A stretch of DNA of 64,000 bases from the NCBI RefSeq assembly GCF_013167455.1, contig NZ_CP038328.1; one strand, given 5' to 3'. Origin of the DNA: Escherichia coli O157:H7 (GTDB lineage Bacteria > Pseudomonadota > Gammaproteobacteria > Enterobacterales > Enterobacteriaceae). Under the pieces are notes generated by a model that searched no databases, was not told the DNA's origin, and saw nothing but the letters and a program-made list of their open reading frames with translations. Positions 2,801-21,957 of the stretch are shown in pieces (the stretch's first letter is position 1; the number at the start of each line of letters is the position of its first letter). Position numbers and translations under genes: made by a program.

Positions 2801-4770
2801 CACAACTCGCCATTGGCAAACCCGCTCCCCTCGGCGCGCATTACGACGGTCAGGGCGTCAACTTCACACTTTTCTCCGCTCATGCCGAGCGGGTAGAACT
2901 GTGTGTCTTTGACGCCAATGGCCAGGAACATCGCTATGACTTGCCAGGGCACAGTGGCGACATTTGGCACGGTTATCTGCCGGATGCGCGCCCGGGTTTG
3001 CGTTATGGTTATCGCGTTCATGGCCCCTGGCAACCCGCCGAGGGGCATCGCTTTAACCCGGCGAAGTTGTTGATTGATCCTTGCGCGCGGCAAATTGACG
3101 GGGAGTTTAAAGATAACCCGCTGCTGCACGCCGGTCATAATGAACCTGACTATCGCGACAACGCCGCCATTGCGCCGAAATGCGTAGTGGTGGTTGATCA
3201 CTATGACTGGGAAGATGATGCCCCGCCGCGCACGCCGTGGGGCAGCACCATCATTTATGAAGCCCATGTTAAAGGATTAACGTACCTGCACCCGGAGATC
3301 CCGGTCGAGATCCGTGGCACTTATAAAGCCCTCGGGCATCCGGTGATGATCAACTATTTGAAACAATTGGGCATTACCGCGCTGGAACTGCTGCCAGTGG
3401 CGCAGTTTGCCAGTGAACCACGTCTGCAACGCATGGGGCTAAGTAACTACTGGGGTTACAACCCGGTGGCGATGTTTGCGCTGCATCCGGCGTATGCCTG
3501 CTCGCCAGAAACGGCGCTGCATGAGTTTCGCGATGCAATCAAAGCACTGCATAAAGCGGGTATCGAAGTCATTCTTGATATCGTGCTCAACCATAGTGCG
3601 GAACTGGACCTCGACGGCCCGTTATTCTCGCTGCGTGGGATCGACAACCGTAGCTATTATTGGATAAGAGAAGACGGCGATTATCACAACTGGACCGGTT
3701 GTGGCAACACGCTCAATTTGAGTCACCCGGCGGTGGTGGATTATGCCAGCGCCTGCCTGCGTTATTGGGTAGAAACCTGCCACGTCGATGGTTTCCGCTT
3801 TGATCTGGCGGCAGTCATGGGCCGTACGCCAGAGTTCCGTCAGGATGCGCCGTTGTTTACCGCTATCCAGAACTGCCCGGTGCTCTCGCAGGTGAAGTTA
3901 ATTGCTGAACCGTGGGATATCGCTCCTGGTGGTTATCAGGTGGGAAATTTCCCGCCGCTGTTTGCCGAGTGGAACGATCATTTCCGCGATGCTGCCCGTC
4001 GTTTCTGGCTACATTATGATTTGCCTCTGGGGGCGTTTGCCGGGCGTTTTGCTGCCTCCAGCGATGTTTTTAAACGTAATGGTCGTCTGCCGAGTGCCGC
4101 GATTAATCTCGTCACCGCGCATGACGGTTTTACGCTTCGCGACTGCGTTTGTTTCAACCATAAACACAATGAAGCAAACGGAGAAGAAAATCGCGACGGG
4201 ACCAACAACAATTACAGTAACAATCATGGTAAAGAAGGGGTAGGCGGTACCCTTGACCTGGTTGAACGGCGGCGCGACAGCATTCACGCCCTGTTAACAA
4301 CGTTGTTGCTCTCCCAGGGTACGCCGATGTTACTGGCCGGTGACGAACATGGTCACAGCCAGCATGGCAATAACAATGCCTACTGTCAGGATAACCAATT
4401 AACCTGGTTGGACTGGTCGCAGGCAAGCAGTGGTTTAACCGCATTTACCGCCGCGTTAATCCATCTGCGCAAGCGTATTCCCGCTTTGGTGGAGAATCGC
4501 TGGTGGGAAGAAGGCGACGGCAATGTCCGTTGGCTAAATCGATATGCTCAACCTTTAAGCACGGATGAGTGGCAAAACGGGCCGAAACAGCTGCAAATTC
4601 TGCTCTCGGATCGCTTTTTGATCGCAATTAACGCCACGCTTGAGGTAACAGAGATTGTTTTACCTGCTGGGGAGTGGCACGCCATTCCCCCATTCGCTGG
4701 AGAGGATAACCCAGTGATTACGGCTGTCTGGCAGGGACCTGCACACGGATTGTGTGTGTTCCAGAGATGA
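2797..4770 (+). CDS. glgX: glycogen debranching enzyme
   Basis: 657-aa [26 protein letters not shown]...; ATGA start/stop overlap with glgB. Confidence 0.97.
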
Positions 4771-4781
4771 TAAAAAAGGAG
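4743..4781 (+). promoter_or_regulatory. glgC leader: CsrA-binding hairpin (CACAC-GGAUU-GUGUG) plus GGA-containing Shine-Dalgarno
   Basis: Stem cacac/gtgtg with GGA in the loop at 4743-4757, and AAGGAG SD at 4776-4781 before the glgC ATG; matches the published CsrA repression architecture of the glgCAP leader. Confidence 0.6.
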
Positions 4782-4787
4782 TTAGTC

Positions 4788-6083
4788 ATGGTTAGTTTAG
4801 AGAAGAACGATCACTTAATGTTGGCGCGCCAGCTGCCATTGAAATCTGTTGCCCTGATACTGGCGGGAGGACGTGGTACCCGCCTGAAGGATTTAACCAA
4901 TAAGCGAGCAAAACCGGCCGTACACTTCGGCGGTAAGTTCCGCATTATCGACTTTGCGCTGTCTAACTGCATCAACTCCGGGATCCGTCGTATGGGCGTG
5001 ATCACCCAGTACCAGTCCCACACTCTGGTGCAGCACATTCAGCGCGGCTGGTCATTCTTCAATGAAGAAATGAACGAGTTTGTCGATCTGCTGCCAGCAC
5101 AGCAGAGAATGAAAGGGGAAAACTGGTATCGCGGCACCGCAGATGCGGTCACCCAAAACCTCGATATTATTCGCCGTTATAAAGCGGAATACGTGGTGAT
5201 CCTGGCGGGCGACCATATCTACAAGCAAGACTACTCGCGTATGCTTATCGATCACGTCGAAAAAGGCGCACGTTGCACCGTTGCTTGTATGCCAGTACCG
5301 ATTGAAGAAGCCTCCGCATTTGGCGTTATGGCGGTTGATGAGAACGATAAAATTATCGAATTCGTTGAAAAACCTGCTAACCCGCCGTCAATGCCGAACG
5401 ATCCGAGCAAATCTCTGGCGAGTATGGGTATCTACGTCTTTGACGCCGACTATCTGTATGAACTGCTGGAAGAAGACGATCGCGATGAGAACTCCAGCCA
5501 CGACTTTGGCAAAGATTTGATTCCCAAGATCACCGAAGCCGGTCTGGCCTATGCGCACCCGTTCCCGCTCTCTTGCGTACAATCCGATCCGGATGCCGAG
5601 CCGTACTGGCGCGATGTGGGTACGCTGGAAGCTTACTGGAAAGCGAACCTCGATCTGGCCTCTGTGGTGCCGGAACTGGATATGTACGATCGCAATTGGC
5701 CAATTCGCACCTACAATGAATCATTACCGCCAGCGAAATTCGTGCAGGATCGCTCCGGTAGCCACGGGATGACCCTTAACTCACTGGTTTCCGGCGGTTG
5801 TGTGATCTCCGGTTCGGTGGTGGTGCAGTCCGTTCTGTTCTCGCGCGTTCGCGTGAATTCATTCTGCAACATTGATTCCGCCGTATTGTTACCGGAAGTA
5901 TGGGTAGGTCGCTCGTGCCGTCTGCGCCGCTGCGTCATCGATCGTGCTTGTGTTATTCCGGAAGGCATGGTGATTGGTGAAAACGCAGAGGAAGATGCAC
6001 GTCGTTTCTATCGTTCAGAAGAAGGCATCGTGCTGGTAACGCGCGAAATGCTACGGAAGTTAGGGCATAAACAGGAGCGATAA
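4788..6083 (+). CDS. glgC: glucose-1-phosphate adenylyltransferase (ADP-glucose pyrophosphorylase)
   Basis: ORF track starts at 4752, but [20 protein letters not shown]... with AAGGAG SD corresponds to the 431-aa protein; start placed at ATG 4788. Confidence 0.95.
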
Positions 6084-10097: not shown

Positions 10098-11615
10098 ATG
10101 GACAGAATGATGCCAAATAGAAAATGGATTTTGACCTCGCTGATAATGACTTTTTTCGGCATCCCCATACTGGCGCAATTTTTGGCAGCGGTTGTTGCCA
10201 TGCTGGGTGTCGGGCTTACCGGTATTATTGAAGTTTGTAATATCCTTATCACGCCAACAATTTATCTTCTACTCAACGTCTTTATGCTGACGCTGGGGGC
10301 GATAATAATATTTTTCTCTGGTCGCGTGTGGGCCGGTGATAGCGCGCCAGAAAACAGAGAAATAGCCGTCTGGCGGCAATGCTTTTTTCTCTTACCCGCG
10401 CTATTAACCCTGGTTGGCTGGATAATCACGCTACATCTGGCAGATTATCAATTTCGCCAGATGGGAGCTGGTTGGTTGGCAAACCTTATGCTTCCCTGGT
10501 TGGGCGTTTTTTTAGTCTCATTAGTGGGTGGTGAGTACTGGTGGATGGTCATTATTCCCGTTGGGGCGCATATCAGTTTTTCGCTGGGATACGCCTGGCC
10601 GACCAGATATCCTTTATCCGGCACGTCCGGACTACGTTGCCGTAACTTACTCCTGTTTCTACTTCTCTTACTTGGTATTGTCGCCGGGTATCAGGCCCAT
10701 TTATATAAGCAGCAAAATCCTGGTGTCGGTGTACGCGAAAATATTGATATCAGGGCCTGGCGACCCGATAAACTCAATAATCGACTGACGCCGCTGCGTG
10801 GCAAACCGCAAATTCAGTTTAGGCAAAACTGGCCGCGAATCGATGGCGCCACGGCTGCGTACCCAATTTATGCTTCTGCATTTTATGCATTAAGTGTAAT
10901 ACCAGAGGATTTTCACGTTTGGGAATATCTGGAGAACTCTCGTACCCCCGATGCATATAACCGGATTGTTAAAGGTGATGCCGATATTATTTTTGTGGCG
11001 CAACCCTCCGGCGGGCAGAAAAAACGCGCTGAGGAATCGGGCGTCACTTTGCTATACACGCCATTTGCCCGTGAAGCATTTGTTTTCATCGTCAATGCGG
11101 ATAATCCGGTTAATTCCCTGACTGAACAACAGGTGCGTGACATTTTCAGTGGTGCAATTACCAATTGGCGTACTGTTGGCGGTAACGATCAGGAGATCCA
11201 GACCTGGCAGCGCCCGGAAGACTCTGGCAGCCAGACAGTGATGCAATCACAGGTCATGAAAAAAGTCCGCATGATCTCGCCGCAGGAAACGGAAGTGGCA
11301 AGCGTGATGGAGGGAATGATTAAAGTCGTTGCCGAATACCGTAATACAAACAACGCAATAGGCTATACCTTCCGCTATTACGCGACGCAAATGAATGCTG
11401 ATAAAAATATAAGATTGCTAGCGATTAACGGTATTACACCGACGGCGGAAAACATTCGCAACGGCAAATATGCGTACATCGTCGATGCATTTATGGTGAC
11501 GAGAGAAAATACAACGTCAGAAACACAAAAACTGGTCGAATGGTTTTTAACGCCGCAGGGGCAGAGTCTGGTAGAAGATGTGGGATATGTGCCGCTGTAT
11601 CTAACAATGGAATAA
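10098..11615 (+). CDS. uncharacterised fusion protein: N-terminal polytopic membrane domain (about 6 predicted TM helices, residues 1-210) plus C-terminal PstS-like periplasmic phosphate/anion-binding domain
   Basis: 505-aa ORF; N-terminal half is strongly hydrophobic. C-terminal half carries PstS-family signatures as I recall them: GATAAYPIYASAF, QRPEDSGSQ (compare RADGSGTS in PstS), IGYTFRYYA, ITPTAENIRNG. Start may be M1 or M4/M5; AGGAAG SD precedes 10098. Confidence 0.8.
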   Translation: MDRMMPNRKWILTSLIMTFFGIPILAQFLAAVVAMLGVGLTGIIEVCNILITPTIYLLLNVFMLTLGAIIIFFSGRVWAGDSAPENREIAVWRQCFFLLPALLTLVGWIITLHLADYQFRQMGAGWLANLMLPWLGVFLVSLVGGEYWWMVIIPVGAHISFSLGYAWPTRYPLSGTSGLRCRNLLLFLLLLLGIVAGYQAHLYKQQNPGVGVRENIDIRAWRPDKLNNRLTPLRGKPQIQFRQNWPRIDGATAAYPIYASAFYALSVIPEDFHVWEYLENSRTPDAYNRIVKGDADIIFVAQPSGGQKKRAEESGVTLLYTPFAREAFVFIVNADNPVNSLTEQQVRDIFSGAITNWRTVGGNDQEIQTWQRPEDSGSQTVMQSQVMKKVRMISPQETEVASVMEGMIKVVAEYRNTNNAIGYTFRYYATQMNADKNIRLLAINGITPTAENIRNGKYAYIVDAFMVTRENTTSETQKLVEWFLTPQGQSLVEDVGYVPLYLTME

Positions 11616-11640
11616 CGCTCGAGAGAAAGGAATCAGCGAG

Positions 11641-12633
11641 ATGAATAAATTCACCGGTGTTTTACTATTAGGCACGGCGTTACTGGCGGGATGTGTCGAC
11701 CGGGAAGGGTACTATAACAGCGTCAGGGAAGAAGAGAGCCATGGACTGACGTCTCTGCGGGGGCAACCTGCATTACGTTACAGCGATGATTGGTCAAGAT
11801 GGCCGAGAGTGTACGGCGCTACAGCCTTATACCCGCTGTATGCCTCCGCGTATTATAAATTAGTACCCGAGCCAAAAGATAAGGATCGAACCTCGCTGGC
11901 CTGGCAGGCGTATGGTTTGCAGCAAACCCGAACAGCTGAAGCCTACGATAGTCTGATTAAAGGTTCCGCGACGGTTATTTTTGTTGCACAACCGTCGGAA
12001 GGACAGAAAAAACGTGCAGAAGAAGCGGGTGTTAAACTGAAATATACCGCTTTCGCCCGCGAAGCCTTTGTCTTTATCGTTGATATTAATAACCCGGTAA
12101 ATTCTCTCTCTGAGCACCAGGTTAAAGATATTTTTAGCGGCAAAACTAGCCGCTGGAATAAAGTAGGTGGTAGTGACGAACATATAAAAGTCTGGCAGCG
12201 CCCTGAAGATTCTGGAAGCCAAACGATTATGAAGGGGTTGGTTATGCAAGACACCCCAATGCTGCCAGCTAAAAAATCCACTGTGATTGATCTTATGGGC
12301 GGTTTAATTACTGAAGTTGCCGACTATCAAAACACGCCATCTTCCATTGGGTACACCTTCCACTATTACGTCACTCGTATGAATGACAATATGCTCAAAA
12401 TGCGCAAGCAGATTAAACTTTTGGCTATAAATGGCGTTGCGCCTACCGAGGAAAATATCCGCAACGGCACTTATCCATACATTGTGGATGCCTATATGGT
12501 GACGCGTGAAAATCCCACGCCGGAAACGCAGAAATTTGTTGACTGGTTTATAAGTCAGCAGGGGCAACAGTTGGTAGAGGATGTGGGGTATGTGCCGCTG
12601 TATGAAGCATCCCCCGAATCATCAGGACAATAA
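11641..12633 (+). CDS. PstS-like phosphate/anion-binding lipoprotein (paralog of the C-terminal domain of the upstream gene)
   Basis: 330-aa ORF; signal peptide with lipobox LLAGC; roughly 60-70% identity by eye to residues 230-505 of ORF 10098-11615, sharing the FVAQPS.GQKKRAEE, AREAFVFIV, WQRPEDSGSQT and VEDVGYVPLY blocks. Confidence 0.85.
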   Translation: MNKFTGVLLLGTALLAGCVDREGYYNSVREEESHGLTSLRGQPALRYSDDWSRWPRVYGATALYPLYASAYYKLVPEPKDKDRTSLAWQAYGLQQTRTAEAYDSLIKGSATVIFVAQPSEGQKKRAEEAGVKLKYTAFAREAFVFIVDINNPVNSLSEHQVKDIFSGKTSRWNKVGGSDEHIKVWQRPEDSGSQTIMKGLVMQDTPMLPAKKSTVIDLMGGLITEVADYQNTPSSIGYTFHYYVTRMNDNMLKMRKQIKLLAINGVAPTEENIRNGTYPYIVDAYMVTRENPTPETQKFVDWFISQQGQQLVEDVGYVPLYEASPESSGQ

Positions 12634-13235
12634 TGATGAATATAATCAGACTTTATATTTATCCGTTATTTCTCGGCTTTGTTATTGTACCGTTGTTGGT
12701 GTGGCCGACGGTGGTTGCGCTGGCTGCCTGTGTAATCACGCTGAGTTTTCTGGGAGAAATACTGTTCTCAATCCCGCTCATGCACAGGCGTATTTCCCTT
12801 CTGCAATTACAACTATGGTTATCGGCTGAATATGCGCTTTTCTTCTGTGCAATGGTGGGCGTTGGTTGGCAATTTGCGCGCAGAACGCCACCTGAATTGA
12901 AAAGCAGACTGCATTGTTGGCTGGTATTTGCACCAGTTTATTTCTGGTTGCTCCTGTGGAATATCATTTTTTATGTCGCGCCAGCGCAAATTGCTTTGCT
13001 GGAAAATATGCGCAGTTTCTTTCTGACAGTTGTCTGGCTCCCACTGAATTTTTCGCCATTTTGGTCTCAACAGTGGATCGACTTTGTCGGTCCGATAAGT
13101 GCACAGCTTGGTTTTGCGTTGGGATATTATTGCCAGTGGCGTAGCAAAAATAGAAGCCAGATACGGAAGTGGAGTGAGTGGGGAACGTGCTTAAGTTTTG
13201 TTACGTTGGGTATGATGGCGTGGGCTTTGCGGTAA
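12633..13235 (+). CDS. integral membrane protein (about 6 TM), paralog of the N-terminal membrane domain of ORF 10098-11615
   Basis: 200-aa hydrophobic ORF; its ATG overlaps the upstream stop (TAATG); shares LGFALGYYCQW versus ISFSLGYAWPT and a similar helix spacing with the ORF1 N-domain. Confidence 0.7.
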   Translation: MMNIIRLYIYPLFLGFVIVPLLVWPTVVALAACVITLSFLGEILFSIPLMHRRISLLQLQLWLSAEYALFFCAMVGVGWQFARRTPPELKSRLHCWLVFAPVYFWLLLWNIIFYVAPAQIALLENMRSFFLTVVWLPLNFSPFWSQQWIDFVGPISAQLGFALGYYCQWRSKNRSQIRKWSEWGTCLSFVTLGMMAWALR

Positions 13236-13288: not shown

Positions 13289-13387
13289 GCCTGATGCGGC
13301 GTGAACGCCTTATCAGGCCTACAAAATCATGCAAATTCAACATATTGCATAAACCACGTAGGCCTGATAAGCGTAGCGCATCAGGCA
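13289..13387. repeat. BIME: two REP elements in inverted orientation
   Basis: gcctgatgcggcgtgaacgccttatcaggcctac (13289-13322) and gtaggcctgataagcgtagcgcatcaggca (13358-13387) match the enterobacterial REP consensus. Confidence 0.85.
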
Positions 13388-15503: not shown

Positions 15504-16346
<843 letters not shown>

Positions 16347-16362
16347 TTCCAGGGATTTAGAA

Positions 16363-17121
16363 ATGAAACAAACACAACGTCACAACGGTATTATCGAACT
16401 GGTTAAACAGCAGGGTTATGTCAGTACCGAGGAGCTGGTGGAGCACTTCTCCGTCAGCCCGCAGACTATTCGCCGCGACCTCAATGAGCTGGCGGAGCAA
16501 AACCTGATCCTGCGCCATCATGGCGGTGCGGCGCTGCCTTCCAGTTCGGTTAACACGCCGTGGCACGATCGTAAAGCCACCCAGACCGAAGAAAAAGAGC
16601 GCATCGCCCGCAAAGTGGCGGAGCAAATCCCCAATGGCTCGACGCTGTTTATCGATATCGGCACCACGCCGGAAGCGGTGGCGCACGCGCTGCTCAATCA
16701 CAGCAATTTGCGCATTGTCACCAACAATCTTAACGTTGCTAACACGCTGATGGTAAAAGAGGATTTCCGTATTATTCTCGCCGGTGGCGAATTACGCAGC
16801 CGCGATGGCGGGATCATTGGCGAAGCGACGCTCGATTTTATCTCCCAGTTCCGCCTTGATTTCGGCATTCTGGGGATAAGCGGCATCGATAGCGACGGCT
16901 CGCTGCTGGAGTTCGATTACCACGAAGTTCGCACCAAACGCGCCATTATTGAGAACTCGCGCCACGTTATGCTGGTTGTCGATCACTCGAAATTTGGCCG
17001 TAACGCGATGGTCAATATGGGTAGCATCAGCATGGTAGATGCCGTCTACACCGACACCCCGCCGCCAGTAAGCGTGATGCAGGTGCTGACGGACCACCAT
17101 ATTCAACTGGAGCTGTGCTGA
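16363..17121 (+). CDS. glpR: glycerol-3-phosphate regulon repressor (DeoR family)
   Basis: MKQTQRHNGIIELVKQQGYVSTEELVEHFSVSPQTIRRDL... 252 aa; start trimmed from 16312 to the ATG at 16363; 3' end overlaps the rtcR 3' end by 19 nt (convergent). Confidence 0.93.
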   Translation: MKQTQRHNGIIELVKQQGYVSTEELVEHFSVSPQTIRRDLNELAEQNLILRHHGGAALPSSSVNTPWHDRKATQTEEKERIARKVAEQIPNGSTLFIDIGTTPEAVAHALLNHSNLRIVTNNLNVANTLMVKEDFRIILAGGELRSRDGGIIGEATLDFISQFRLDFGILGISGIDSDGSLLEFDYHEVRTKRAIIENSRHVMLVVDHSKFGRNAMVNMGSISMVDAVYTDTPPPVSVMQVLTDHHIQLELC

Positions 17122-18701
17122 TCCTGCACGGCTTCCCACGTCAGACCAAAACGCGCCAGGTATTTGCGTAGCCGATCCGCGTCATTGACGCTGGCTTTGC
17201 CCTGGCGCGAAACGTCAAAAAGCTGGCGTCCGGCTGCGGAAAGCGACTTTGCCTGGCGGCAGATTGCGATAACGTGTTCCAGTTGCATACGGTCGAAGAG
17301 ATCGATGTTTTCTGCCTCTGCGCCCAGCAACGCCGTAAGCGCGGAGGGGCGGCTCTCCTGCCAGTTATAGCGCAGACGGTTTATCTCATCTTCAACCACG
17401 TCCAGAGTAATGCGTCCGCTAGAGGCAAAGGTTGCCATTCGCGTGACGCTGGCAGAAAGCTCGCGAAAGTTACCGCGCCATGTTGCCTGGGGAGATGTCG
17501 CAAAGGCCAGCCAGGCGCGCCGCGCTTCGGTGTTAAAACGCACGCTGTCGCCGGTGAGTGAAGCGTGGCGCTCCACTTCATAATCCAGGTTAGGTTCAAT
17601 ATCTTCCTGACGCTGGCGTAGCCCCGGCAGGGTGAAGGTCCAGAGATTGATCCGCGCGTATAGATCTTCGCGGAATTTGCCATCGGCAACCAGCTGGCGC
17701 AAATCACGCACCGTTCCGGCGATAAGCTGAAAATCACTGCTCACCTGGCGATCGCTGCCAAACGGATAAAAGGTTTTTTCTTCAATGGCTTTCAGCAGCA
17801 TTGCCTGTTCGTCTGCGCCCAGTTCGCCAATCTCATCAAGAAACAACATTCCGCCGTTGGCGCTGCGTAATAATCCTTCACGAGATTCCCGTGCCCCGGT
17901 AAACGCGCCTTTCACATGACCAAACAGCGTCGACATGGCGGTATCGCCGCGCAGGGTTGCGCAGTTCACTTCCACAAACGCGCCGCTAAACTGATGCCGC
18001 GCCTGTTTTAATTCAAATATACGTCGCGCCAGAAATGACTTGCCCGCACCGGTTGGGCCGTTTAGCAGGATCGGTGCGCGGGATTTAATCGCTACTTTTT
18101 CAATCTGCTCAATCATGCGGTTGAAGTGGGGGTTACGCGTGGCAATACCGGACTTAAGAAAATCAAGCGTTTGCTGGCGTTCCTCGGCAAAGCGGCTGGC
18201 GATGGCGTTATAAAGGCTTAAATCGAGATCGATAATCGTCACTTCACCTGCGCCGCGCGGCTGTTCTTTTTTGCGCGGAGGTGAAGATTGTATCAACCGG
18301 GCGGGCAGGTAACGCGCTTCAGCCAGCAGAAACCAGCAAATCTGCGCGACGTGGGTGCCGGTGGTGATGTGAATTAAATAGTCTTCTTTTTCTGGCTGAA
18401 ACTCGTAACCACGGGCGAAATCATGCAGGCAGGCGTAAACCTCTTCGAAATCCCACGGGTTATGCAGTTCAATCTCAACGCTCACCACTTCGGTTTCTGG
18501 CGAAACGCTGGCGATATCGCGTTTAAGCGTTTCAAATAGCGAGCGCGAGCGGGCGTCATGCAATAATTCCAGTCGATCGATGACTAACGATTCTTGCTGG
18601 CATATACAGAGTGACGGACGCCATTTCGACCAGCGCTGACTGCCGCGCCCGGCATAATCCAGCACTGTTCCGACAAAGCCAAAAGCCACTGTTTTACGCA
18701 T
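17103..18701 (-). CDS. rtcR: sigma-54-dependent transcriptional activator of rtcBA (CARF-AAA+-HTH)
   Basis: 532-aa ORF with GPTGAGKS Walker A and the GAFTGA sigma-54 interaction motif; divergent from rtcB. Confidence 0.95.
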
Positions 18702-18834
18702 CTTAGATATCCTTATAAAAGACGATATTTCATTATCGGTAAATTGGCTTTGCGGGAAATCTCCGTTTACGGACGTAAAGATATAATCTTTTTAAAACAA
18801 TGAATTAAAAAATTAATCTGCTTATTTAATTTTC

Positions 18835-18850
18835 TGGCACGACGGTTGCA
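18835..18850 (+). promoter_or_regulatory. sigma-54 (RpoN) promoter of rtcBA
   Basis: TGGCAC-gacgg-TTGCA, a perfect -24 GG / -12 GC element about 40 bp upstream of the rtcB ATG. Confidence 0.85.
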
Positions 18851-18888
18851 ATTATCAGGACCGCAAACAACGAAAAGAGAAAAACAAA

Positions 18889-20115
18889 ATGAATTACGAA
18901 TTACTGACCACTGAAAATGCCCCGGTAAAAATGTGGACCAAAGGCGTGCCGGTAGAAGCCGATGCGCGTCAGCAACTTATTAATACGGCGAAGATGCCGT
19001 TTATTTTCAAACATATTGCGGTAATGCCTGATGTACACCTGGGTAAAGGTTCCACCATTGGTAGCGTGATCCCGACCAAAGGGGCGATTATTCCGGCGGC
19101 GGTGGGCGTGGATATTGGCTGTGGAATGAACGCACTACGTACCGCTTTAACGGCGGCTGACCTGCCGGAAAACCTGGCGGAGCTGCGTCAGGCGATTGAA
19201 ACTGCGGTGCCGCACGGGCGTACCACTGGCCGTTGTAAACGTGATAAAGGCGCATGGGAAAACCCGCCTGTTAACGTCGATGCGAAATGGGCTGAGCTGG
19301 AGGCCGGTTATCAGTGGTTAACGCAAAAATATCCGCGTTTCCTTAACACTAACAACTATAAACACCTGGGAACGCTGGGAACGGGTAACCACTTTATTGA
19401 AATCTGCCTTGATGAGTCGGACCAGGTGTGGATTATGCTGCACTCCGGTTCACGCGGAATTGGTAATGCCATCGGGACTTACTTTATCGATCTGGCGCAA
19501 AAAGAGATGCAGGAAACGCTTGAAACATTGCCGTCGCGTGATCTGGCGTACTTTATGGAAGGTACGGAATACTTTGATGATTACCTGAAAGCCGTGGCCT
19601 GGGCGCAGCTTTTTGCCAGCCTTAACCGCGATGTGATGATGGAAAACGTAGTAACGGCGTTGCAGAGCATTACGCAGAAAACGGTCAGACAGCCACAAAC
19701 GCTGGCGATGGAAGAGATCAACTGTCACCACAACTATGTGCAAAAAGAACAGCACTTTGGTGAAGAGATCTACGTGACGCGTAAAGGCGCGGTGTCTGCG
19801 CGTGCTGGTCAATATGGAATTATTCCAGGGTCGATGGGAGCGAAAAGCTTTATCGTCCGTGGGCTGGGAAATGAAGAGTCGTTCTGTTCGTGCAGCCACG
19901 GTGCCGGGCGGGTTATGAGCCGTACTAAAGCGAAAAAAATGTTCAGCGTGGAAGATCAAATTCGTGCCACCGTGCATGTGGAATGCCGTAAAGATGCCGA
20001 AGTGATCGACGAAATCCCGATGGCGTATAAAGATATTGATGCGGTGATGGCGGCACAAAGCGATCTGGTGGAAGTTATCTACACCCTACGTCAGGTGGTG
20101 TGCGTAAAAGGATAA
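18889..20115 (+). CDS. rtcB: RNA-splicing ligase RtcB (3'-phosphate/5'-OH RNA ligase)
   Basis: 408-aa ORF, MNYELLTTENAPVKMWTKGVPVEADARQQL... Confidence 0.96.
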   Translation: MNYELLTTENAPVKMWTKGVPVEADARQQLINTAKMPFIFKHIAVMPDVHLGKGSTIGSVIPTKGAIIPAAVGVDIGCGMNALRTALTAADLPENLAELRQAIETAVPHGRTTGRCKRDKGAWENPPVNVDAKWAELEAGYQWLTQKYPRFLNTNNYKHLGTLGTGNHFIEICLDESDQVWIMLHSGSRGIGNAIGTYFIDLAQKEMQETLETLPSRDLAYFMEGTEYFDDYLKAVAWAQLFASLNRDVMMENVVTALQSITQKTVRQPQTLAMEEINCHHNYVQKEQHFGEEIYVTRKGAVSARAGQYGIIPGSMGAKSFIVRGLGNEESFCSCSHGAGRVMSRTKAKKMFSVEDQIRATVHVECRKDAEVIDEIPMAYKDIDAVMAAQSDLVEVIYTLRQVVCVKG

Positions 20116-21147
<1,032 letters not shown>

Positions 21148-21196: not shown

Positions 21197-21682
21197 TTAC
21201 TCCAGAGTAATGGGATACAGTAAGGTAAGTGACTGGAATGGTGAAGGTACAAAGGCATACTTCAGATAGAAATTGCGTACTGAATCGTCTAAGGCATGAA
21301 CAATGAGCGCACGAACCCCTACCTGTTGAGCTATGGACATTGTGCGATAGACTGCATCTTTCAACAATGCGACGCCCAACCCTTTACCTGCCCAGGCTTG
21401 ATCAATTGCCAGTCTGCCTAATACGACAACAGGCAACGATTCGGGAGCATTACGTCGCATGGCTCCAGGGGCCAAATTACGTTGAATACTGCCTGTAGAA
21501 AGGCAGTAATAGCCGATTACCTGGCGGGTATTGGCAATACAGATAACGTAAACACGAGACAGACCGGAGCTGTGATTTTTTAACGCTTTCTTTTTTAGCC
21601 ATTCATTCATCCCGTGATCGGAACAGCAAAAGTCAGCCAGATTATGTTCAGACGTTAGGGGAGTAGGAGCCGTTATTCCCAT
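21197..21682 (-). CDS. GNAT-family acetyltransferase toxin (TacT/AtaT/ItaT-like; family members acetylate aminoacyl-tRNA)
   Basis: 161-aa ORF with acetyl-CoA-binding motif Q-x-x-G-x-G (QAWAGKGLG); start overlaps the upstream DUF1778-type ORF by 10 nt; N-terminus MGITAPTPL resembles TacT-like toxins. Confidence 0.8.
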   Translation of the reverse strand: MGITAPTPLTSEHNLADFCCSDHGMNEWLKKKALKNHSSGLSRVYVICIANTRQVIGYYCLSTGSIQRNLAPGAMRRNAPESLPVVVLGRLAIDQAWAGKGLGVALLKDAVYRTMSIAQQVGVRALIVHALDDSVRNFYLKYAFVPSPFQSLTLLYPITLE

Positions 21683-21957
21683 GGCGATTTACGATTCATC
21701 AACGCGTTAATTTTGGCCTGACGCTCAGCAGTGATGGGGGCGTCCAGGGCAGCGAGAAACGCATCGTATTGCTCGTCATCAAGGATGAATAGTCGTTGAT
21801 CTAATAAGATGTCTTGCGCTTCACGGCATGCGGCATCCAGCATAAAATCAGTGCGCGATTTTGCGACCAGATTCGCTGCCATATCAATCAGGTCACGCTG
21901 TGAGGCTTTCGCTCTGATATTGATTGGCGCTTCTTTGCTTTCCGGTTTCATATTCAT
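21673..21957 (-). CDS. DUF1778 / ribbon-helix-helix-like antitoxin partner of the GNAT toxin
   Basis: 94-aa ORF immediately upstream of and overlapping the GNAT gene; acidic small protein with N-terminal ...PINIRAKASQRDLIDMAA... typical of TacA/AtaR-class antitoxins. Confidence 0.75.
   Translation of the reverse strand: MNMKPESKEAPINIRAKASQRDLIDMAANLVAKSRTDFMLDAACREAQDILLDQRLFILDDEQYDAFLAALDAPITAERQAKINALMNRKSPWE

Follow-up and report, generated by a model that had tools for sequence, protein, structure and literature searches.

The stretch of DNA analysed here (the window) comprises 64,000 nt from Escherichia coli O157:H7, in which the genes glpR and rtcR face each other with their 3' ends and have their last nucleotides in common (Table 1). 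The identities of the two genes are secure, as Pfam domains and RefSeq coding sequences agree with the names given in the earlier note. GlpR has an HTH_DeoR domain (PF08220) at residues 6-61 and a DeoRC domain (PF00455) at residues 74-231, which places it in the DeoR/GlpR family. RtcR consists of an RtcR/CARF domain (PF06956, residues 2-185), a Sigma54_activat domain (PF00158, residues 187-354) and an AAA_lid_14 domain, and rtcB and rtcA are located divergently from it at 18889-21147, an arrangement that, together with the domains, identifies it as RtcR, a CARF-type sigma-54 enhancer-binding protein. The start of glpR is ambiguous between TTG at 16312 and ATG at 16363, the raw ORF spanning 16312-17121 (+), and the 3' end is unaffected by this choice. 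The nearest solved relative of GlpR is the C-terminal domain of DeoR (7L6L), whose alignment stops at residue 239 and gives no structural information on the last GlpR residues. A structure search found no solved structure that spans the C-terminal region of RtcR. A megablast search matches the stretch to many E. coli O157:H7 chromosomes at 100% identity. Over its whole length the window is the same as NZ_CP022050.2 2901827-2965826 apart from a single base, 20489, inside rtcA.

Table 1. Coordinates of the genes, shared sequence and transcript features at the glpR/rtcR junction (window positions).
Feature	Position	Strand	Description	Basis
glpR	16363-17121	+	252 aa, DeoR-family glycerol-3-phosphate regulon repressor; last gene of glpEGR	ORF, Pfam, RefSeq
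rtcR	17103-18701	−	532 aa, sigma-54-dependent activator of the rtcBA RNA-repair operon	ORF, Pfam, RefSeq
glpR/rtcR shared stretch	17103-17121	both	19 nt	sequence and ORF list
Non-conserved RtcR C-terminal tail	17106-17126	−	Q526-S532 (QDQHSSS); antisense reading of the conserved end of glpR	
Stem-loop	17109-17135	+	10 pairs (2 G-U), glpR stop in the loop; −16.4 kcal/mol	folding
Larger predicted stem-loop	17152-17209	+	antisense to rtcR codons ~498-517; −33.8 kcal/mol	
Expected untranslated glpEGR 3' run-on	17122-17455	+	antisense to rtcR	projected from K-12 3559514

On the + strand glpR ends with CAC CAT ATT CAA CTG GAG CTG TGC TGA (HHIQLELC stop), and on the − strand rtcR ends with CAG GAT CAG CAC AGC TCC AGT TGA (QDQHSSS stop). 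The shared 19 nt provide each gene with its five last sense codons, its stop codon and one base of the sixth codon. The extent of the overlap given in the earlier note is matched exactly by the sequence, by the ORF list and by RefSeq in both O157 and K-12. The same note described the stop codons themselves as overlapping, which holds for the coding 3' ends only; the two stop codons, at 17119-17121 (+) for glpR and 17103-17105 (−) for rtcR, are 13 nt apart. Within the overlap the wobble positions of the two genes coincide, at 17106, 17109, 17112, 17115 and 17118. The overlap is already known, since the standard annotations of K-12 and of O157 both contain it. RefSeq gives identical coordinates, glpR at 16363-17121 and rtcR at 17103-18701, from an O157 strain that is identical here and in whose locus the genes occupy 3064-3822 and 3804-5402. 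In K-12 MG1655 the overlap is likewise 19 nt, between rtcR at 3558268-3559866 and glpR at 3559848-3560605. Glp repressor status is where the strains part, since glpR is intact in the O157 window (252 aa) and a frameshifted pseudogene in K-12 MG1655 (L002, 4849-5606). A 79-nt query spanning the junction matches 5421 of 5426 complete E. coli genomes, and every match that was sampled carries annotations of both genes.

The coding overlap would not be real if one of the two products were truly shorter than annotated. The earlier note had named a shorter annotated rtcR or glpR product in this strain as what would tell against its claim, but RefSeq lists both genes at full length. The 3' end of each gene is set by the first in-frame stop, full-length homology extends in both frames to the overlap, and the effect of a readthrough or frameshift event would be a longer overlap, not a shorter one. 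No evidence in support of an annotation artefact was found, so that this explanation is effectively refuted and retains next to no probability.

The window contains eight convergent gene junctions. At seven of them 26-214 nt separate the genes, and glpR/rtcR is the only one with an overlap. With facing 3' ends, genuine coding genes on both strands and nucleotides in common, glpR/rtcR belongs to the convergent overlapping pairs, of which Huvet and Stumpf listed 75 in E. coli K-12 (PMC4161906). Like glpR/rtcR, these pairs lie on opposite strands with a short common 3' stretch, their overlap comes about through stop-codon movement, and a phase with coinciding wobble positions leaves each gene nearly free to evolve on its own. 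Nothing essential sets glpR/rtcR apart from them; it is one of their number.

The loci used for comparison were obtained from a genome collection, a protein search and contig look-ups, those of Salmonella and Enterobacter through the last two. About ten junction sequences were compared, all from one family, and the junction DNA was read in seven genera. In every one of these seven Enterobacteriaceae genera glpR and rtcR are convergent neighbours without a spacer, while the length of the overlap varies. The 19-nt form is found in E. coli, E. albertii, E. whittamii, two other Escherichia species, Klebsiella oxytoca and an Enterobacter sp., and the RtcR tail of Phytobacter, known from its protein sequence only, ends in QHSSS as in this group. 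An overlap of 4 nt occurs in the dominant form of Salmonella enterica (shared TTAA) and in Superficieibacter electus (CTAA), one of 35 nt in Intestinirhabdus alba, and one of 38 nt in a Salmonella variant with a 536-aa RtcR. The RtcR tails in the compared loci read QDQHSSS, KDQHSSS, QN, KEMAN, ISTAPAEYGDR and ISTIPAVYGGRR. Salmonella illustrates how such a difference can come about. The glpR end TGC TGA has become TGT TAA, both changes being silent in glpR, and a stop codon is created in rtcR that shortens RtcR by five residues. The resulting 527-aa RtcR (ending LQN) is the main Salmonella form. Salmonella RtcR is active in experiments (PMC7790460, PMC9879122), and the strains used in those studies presumably carry the 527-aa protein. 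Since the wobble positions of glpR and rtcR coincide, the substitutions seen among Escherichia within the 19 nt (AGC/AGT, CAA/CAG) leave both proteins unchanged.

The two proteins meet the overlap with very different degrees of constraint. The C-terminus of GlpR, QLELC, is invariant in all compared Enterobacteriaceae, and the sequence comparison indicates that this end, up to the stop codon, is under purifying selection, which would fix the DNA sequence here. The conserved core of RtcR ends with W-E-A-V. The codon for V525 lies at 17127-17129, 5 nt from the end of the glpR stop at 17121, and seven further codons follow before the rtcR stop. In random sequence the chance of seven codons without a stop is ~0.7, calculated by us as (61/64)^7; the length of the overlap is what chance gives. 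The C-termini of RtcR from 18 species end 2-11 residues past a conserved W-(E/D/Q)-x-(V/I/L) motif, with tails that are all different. Outside the family, in Iodobacter, Pseudomonas, Accumulibacter, Desulfobulbus and others, rtcR is not adjacent to glpR, and the motif is likewise followed by 2-10 variable residues.

The convergent overlap is therefore very probably an ordinary neutral by-product of two conserved genes that abut without a spacer, because the conserved cores are only 5 nt apart and the RtcR tail is free. With the end of GlpR constrained, the tail of RtcR would simply translate the antisense strand of glpR up to the first in-frame stop. In Escherichia this stop, TGA, would be the antisense of T-CA across the Ile-Gln codons of glpR, giving 19 nt, and in other genera small indels or silent changes in glpR would shift it. 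The variation described above argues that the overlap is not selected in itself, as far as sequence comparison can tell.

The consequences for transcription follow from the same geometry. As no intergenic DNA lies between the genes, neither would have an intrinsic terminator of its own. The earlier note had argued that there is no room for separate terminators, and this stands; intergenic DNA is absent, and a consensus scan for intrinsic terminators has no hit at the junction. Across 16000-19000 the scan picks up five terminator-like sites, compared with 4.5 expected from shuffles. Rfam yields no RNA family match at the junction at the gathering threshold. Downstream of both stops the C>G (rut-like) composition amounts to mild C-rich stretches only, which are not diagnostic. 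An intrinsic (bidirectional) terminator at the junction was considered and rejected, with no scan hit, no excess of sites and no U tracts. The junction resembles the bidirectional intrinsic terminators in its position at convergent 3' ends, here within them, but its hairpin has no flanking A and U tracts and fails the terminator scan.

The available transcript data point to Rho. In K-12, DirectRNA-seq of bicyclomycin-treated and untreated cells (Adams et al. 2021, PMC7815308, supplementary file 2) places a Rho termination region at 3559514 on the − strand, antisense to rtcR. Untreated cells gave 154 reads upstream and 29 downstream, treated cells 153 and 256. The region has a Rho score of 8.9 (p 2.7e-27), calculated over 800-nt windows and thus of low resolution. 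This position lies 334 nt beyond the stop codon of glpR, on the strand of that gene, and corresponds to ~17455 in the window, a projection that relies on rtcR being collinear without gaps in the two sequences. Entry of the glpEGR transcript into rtcR in antisense and its arrest by Rho are thus shown in K-12, and we infer the same for O157, with the proviso that MG1655, the strain of the Rho data, has a pseudogene in place of glpR, so that translation and Rho access differ from those in O157. If the neutral reading is right, ribosomes would leave the message at the glpR stop, and the transcript would run on into rtcR for no more than a few hundred nucleotides before Rho stopped it. A similar end inside glpR is presumed for the rtcR transcript. 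The two mRNAs are expected to have complementary 3' ends because each would end inside the partner gene. Such overlap is common in K-12, where the 3' transcript ends overlap in 276 of 370 convergent operons, with a mean of 286 nt (PMC4161252). In the part of the supplementary files of Adams et al. 2021 covered here, no Term-seq peak falls between K-12 3559400 and 3559999, and the SMRT-Cappable-seq supplements make no mention of the junction.

Several variant forms of the locus were observed. The antisense strand of the 3' half of glpR holds a long open frame (16792-17139, − strand, 115 aa). RtcR variants of 635-644 aa (P0001, P0007), present in some E. coli assemblies, have a frameshift near the 3' end of rtcR that shifts translation into this frame, so that ~100 extra codons are read through antisense glpR; pseudogenes or errors of assembly are the probable explanation. 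A 2451-nt glpR-rtcR query was compared with 5425 complete E. coli genomes, and in 577 of them (~10%) the best match extends over less than 80% of the query. Four of five sampled low-coverage matches share one deletion, running from inside rtcR to inside rtcA (e.g. L024, NZ_CP028483.1). It leaves a 399-nt 3' remnant of rtcR (window 17103-17501) that still overlaps an intact glpR and includes the projected glpEGR Rho termination region. In strain L023 only the last ~99 nt of rtcR are left, adjoining malT.

Complementary 3' ends raise the question of regulation. The earlier note had suggested that transcription of one gene may interfere with the other, and nothing found in the sequence comparison or the literature shows such interference. 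In a functional convergent excludon, polymerase collisions or RNase III cleavage would make glpEGR and rtcR mutually antagonistic, the RNase III substrate being the duplex, ~350 bp or longer, in which the 3' ends of the two transcripts would pair. Such pairs resemble glpR/rtcR in being neighbours on opposite strands, the transcripts of glpR and rtcR being expected to overlap, and read-through on the glpR strand is documented in K-12. Consistent with this, the spacer is absent in seven of seven genera, transcription on the glpR strand enters rtcR and requires Rho to stop, and convergent excludons are reportedly common in E. coli, 165 having been mapped, typically with short intergenic distances (PMC12288877), excludon pairs having shorter distances than non-overlapping neighbours in the same study. 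Functional excludons are, however, defined by mutually exclusive expression and RNase III processing, and glpR/rtcR is known from its sequence and from the K-12 Rho data. The main text of PMC12288877 names neither glpR nor rtcR. The literature on the two genes consists of co-listings, and no paper found there connects their expression. The length of the overlap and the tail of RtcR vary freely. Furthermore, the pairing appears to be dispensable, since most of rtcR and rtcBA is missing from ~10% of E. coli genomes, in which glpR remains intact, and the physiological logic between glycerol catabolism and RNA repair is not obvious. Regulator genes such as glpR and rtcR are expected to be weakly transcribed, which would make collisions rare. 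On balance a functional excludon is very improbable.

A one-sided version of this idea is that the Rho-terminated read-through of glpEGR, ~330 nt into rtcR, acts as a cis-antisense brake on RtcR and thereby keeps the interlocked arrangement in place. This is very improbable; if it were true, the level of the RNA-repair activator would be coupled to glpEGR transcription and to Rho activity. Nothing indicates that the expected transcript overlap has been recruited for regulation, although a spacer-free junction in every sampled genus with rtcR at this site could reflect selection for interlocking.

The RNA that follows the glpR stop folds unusually well. The stem-loop at 17109-17135 is in the top 1.1% of 38-nt windows in the 64 kb. 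It is followed by CACGUCAG on the + strand and by AGUUGAAU on the − strand, with a U tract on neither. The 121-nt stretch 17095-17215, which takes in the larger stem-loop as well, is in the top 1.2% of windows. A fold within the top ~1% hints at some RNA function. The two stem-loops might be functional elements of the glpEGR mRNA that could protect the 3' ends of an exonuclease-trimmed, Rho-terminated transcript or position head-on polymerase collisions, and such a role would be compatible with the neutral explanation of the coding overlap. Both are in the top ~1% of stability in the 64 kb, with a shuffle z-score of −4.9, and they come directly after the glpR stop with mild C-rich stretches and the Rho region downstream. 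The layout fits the Rho-dependent transcripts of Dar and Sorek 2018 (PMC6061677), in which stem-loops without a U tract follow the stop and Rho termination occurs downstream; it differs from them in that the glpR hairpins lie inside the coding sequence of another gene and lack covariation support. Hairpin-dependent collision termination between convergent genes has also been described (bioRxiv 10.1101/2022.10.23.513370).

The comparative evidence speaks against a functional role. Both structures weaken or vanish outside Escherichia. In other Escherichia clades, Klebsiella oxytoca and Intestinirhabdus alba the stem-loop at 17109-17135 is less stable or takes another form, and the one at 17152-17209 is strong only in Escherichia, with −9 to −24 kcal/mol in other genera. 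Conservation of the structure was judged on an alignment of ten sequences, in which two of 32 pairs show a change on both sides and the departures mostly leave bases unpaired or pairs broken. The covariation score, 0.068, equals that of the slid control. Compensatory change is almost lacking. The sequence encodes highly conserved residues of RtcR, and this coding constraint explains the apparent conservation of pairs. At the 1% level there are ~64 equally stable windows in this 64 kb, and the part of the supplementary files of Adams et al. 2021 covered here shows no Term-seq 3' end at the stem-loops. A conserved structured RNA element was therefore rejected, there being no covariation, a weakening outside Escherichia and no Rfam hit, and a function of the stem-loops in the glpEGR mRNA, though not as remote as antagonism between the two genes, is unlikely. 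The coding overlap itself is best read as the neutral outcome set out above.

Other features of the window differ between strains or genera. Between glgP and glpD, where K-12 has yzgL only, two genes for PstS-family substrate-binding proteins and a hypothetical gene occupy 10107-13235, which appears to be a strain-specific insert. Just downstream of the 3' end of glpD, on the opposite strand, lies the ES036 (CssrF) sRNA (13323-13365, +; 39.3 bits), the sole Rfam match above the gathering score in the window. A GNAT acetyltransferase gene and a DUF1778 gene, resembling a toxin-antitoxin pair with a 10-nt same-strand overlap, are found between rtcA and malT (21197-21951) and are missing from K-12 at that position. 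Between rtcR and rtcB, Salmonella and Enterobacter sp. carry a Ro60/TROVE (rsr) gene (L027, L029, 758-2313), which is absent there in E. coli and in the locus of the Salmonella 536-aa variant (L028). In the matching O157 record hofM (54970-55748) is listed as a pseudogene with a frameshift, and hofP and hofQ have an 89-nt same-strand overlap at 57017-57105.

In itself the overlap of glpR and rtcR matters little, belonging to a common class and being already annotated. There are nevertheless practical consequences for work on the locus. Deletion or allelic replacement of either gene must spare the common 19 nt, and knocking out rtcR may take away the untranslated 3' part of glpEGR together with its Rho-termination region. 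Transcript data from K-12 are to be transferred to this locus with care, because glpR is a pseudogene in that strain. The junction also offers a clean small example of how overlaps originate, in which the free tail of RtcR reads the antisense strand of a constrained GlpR and, as in Salmonella, silent changes in one gene can shift the stop codon of the other.
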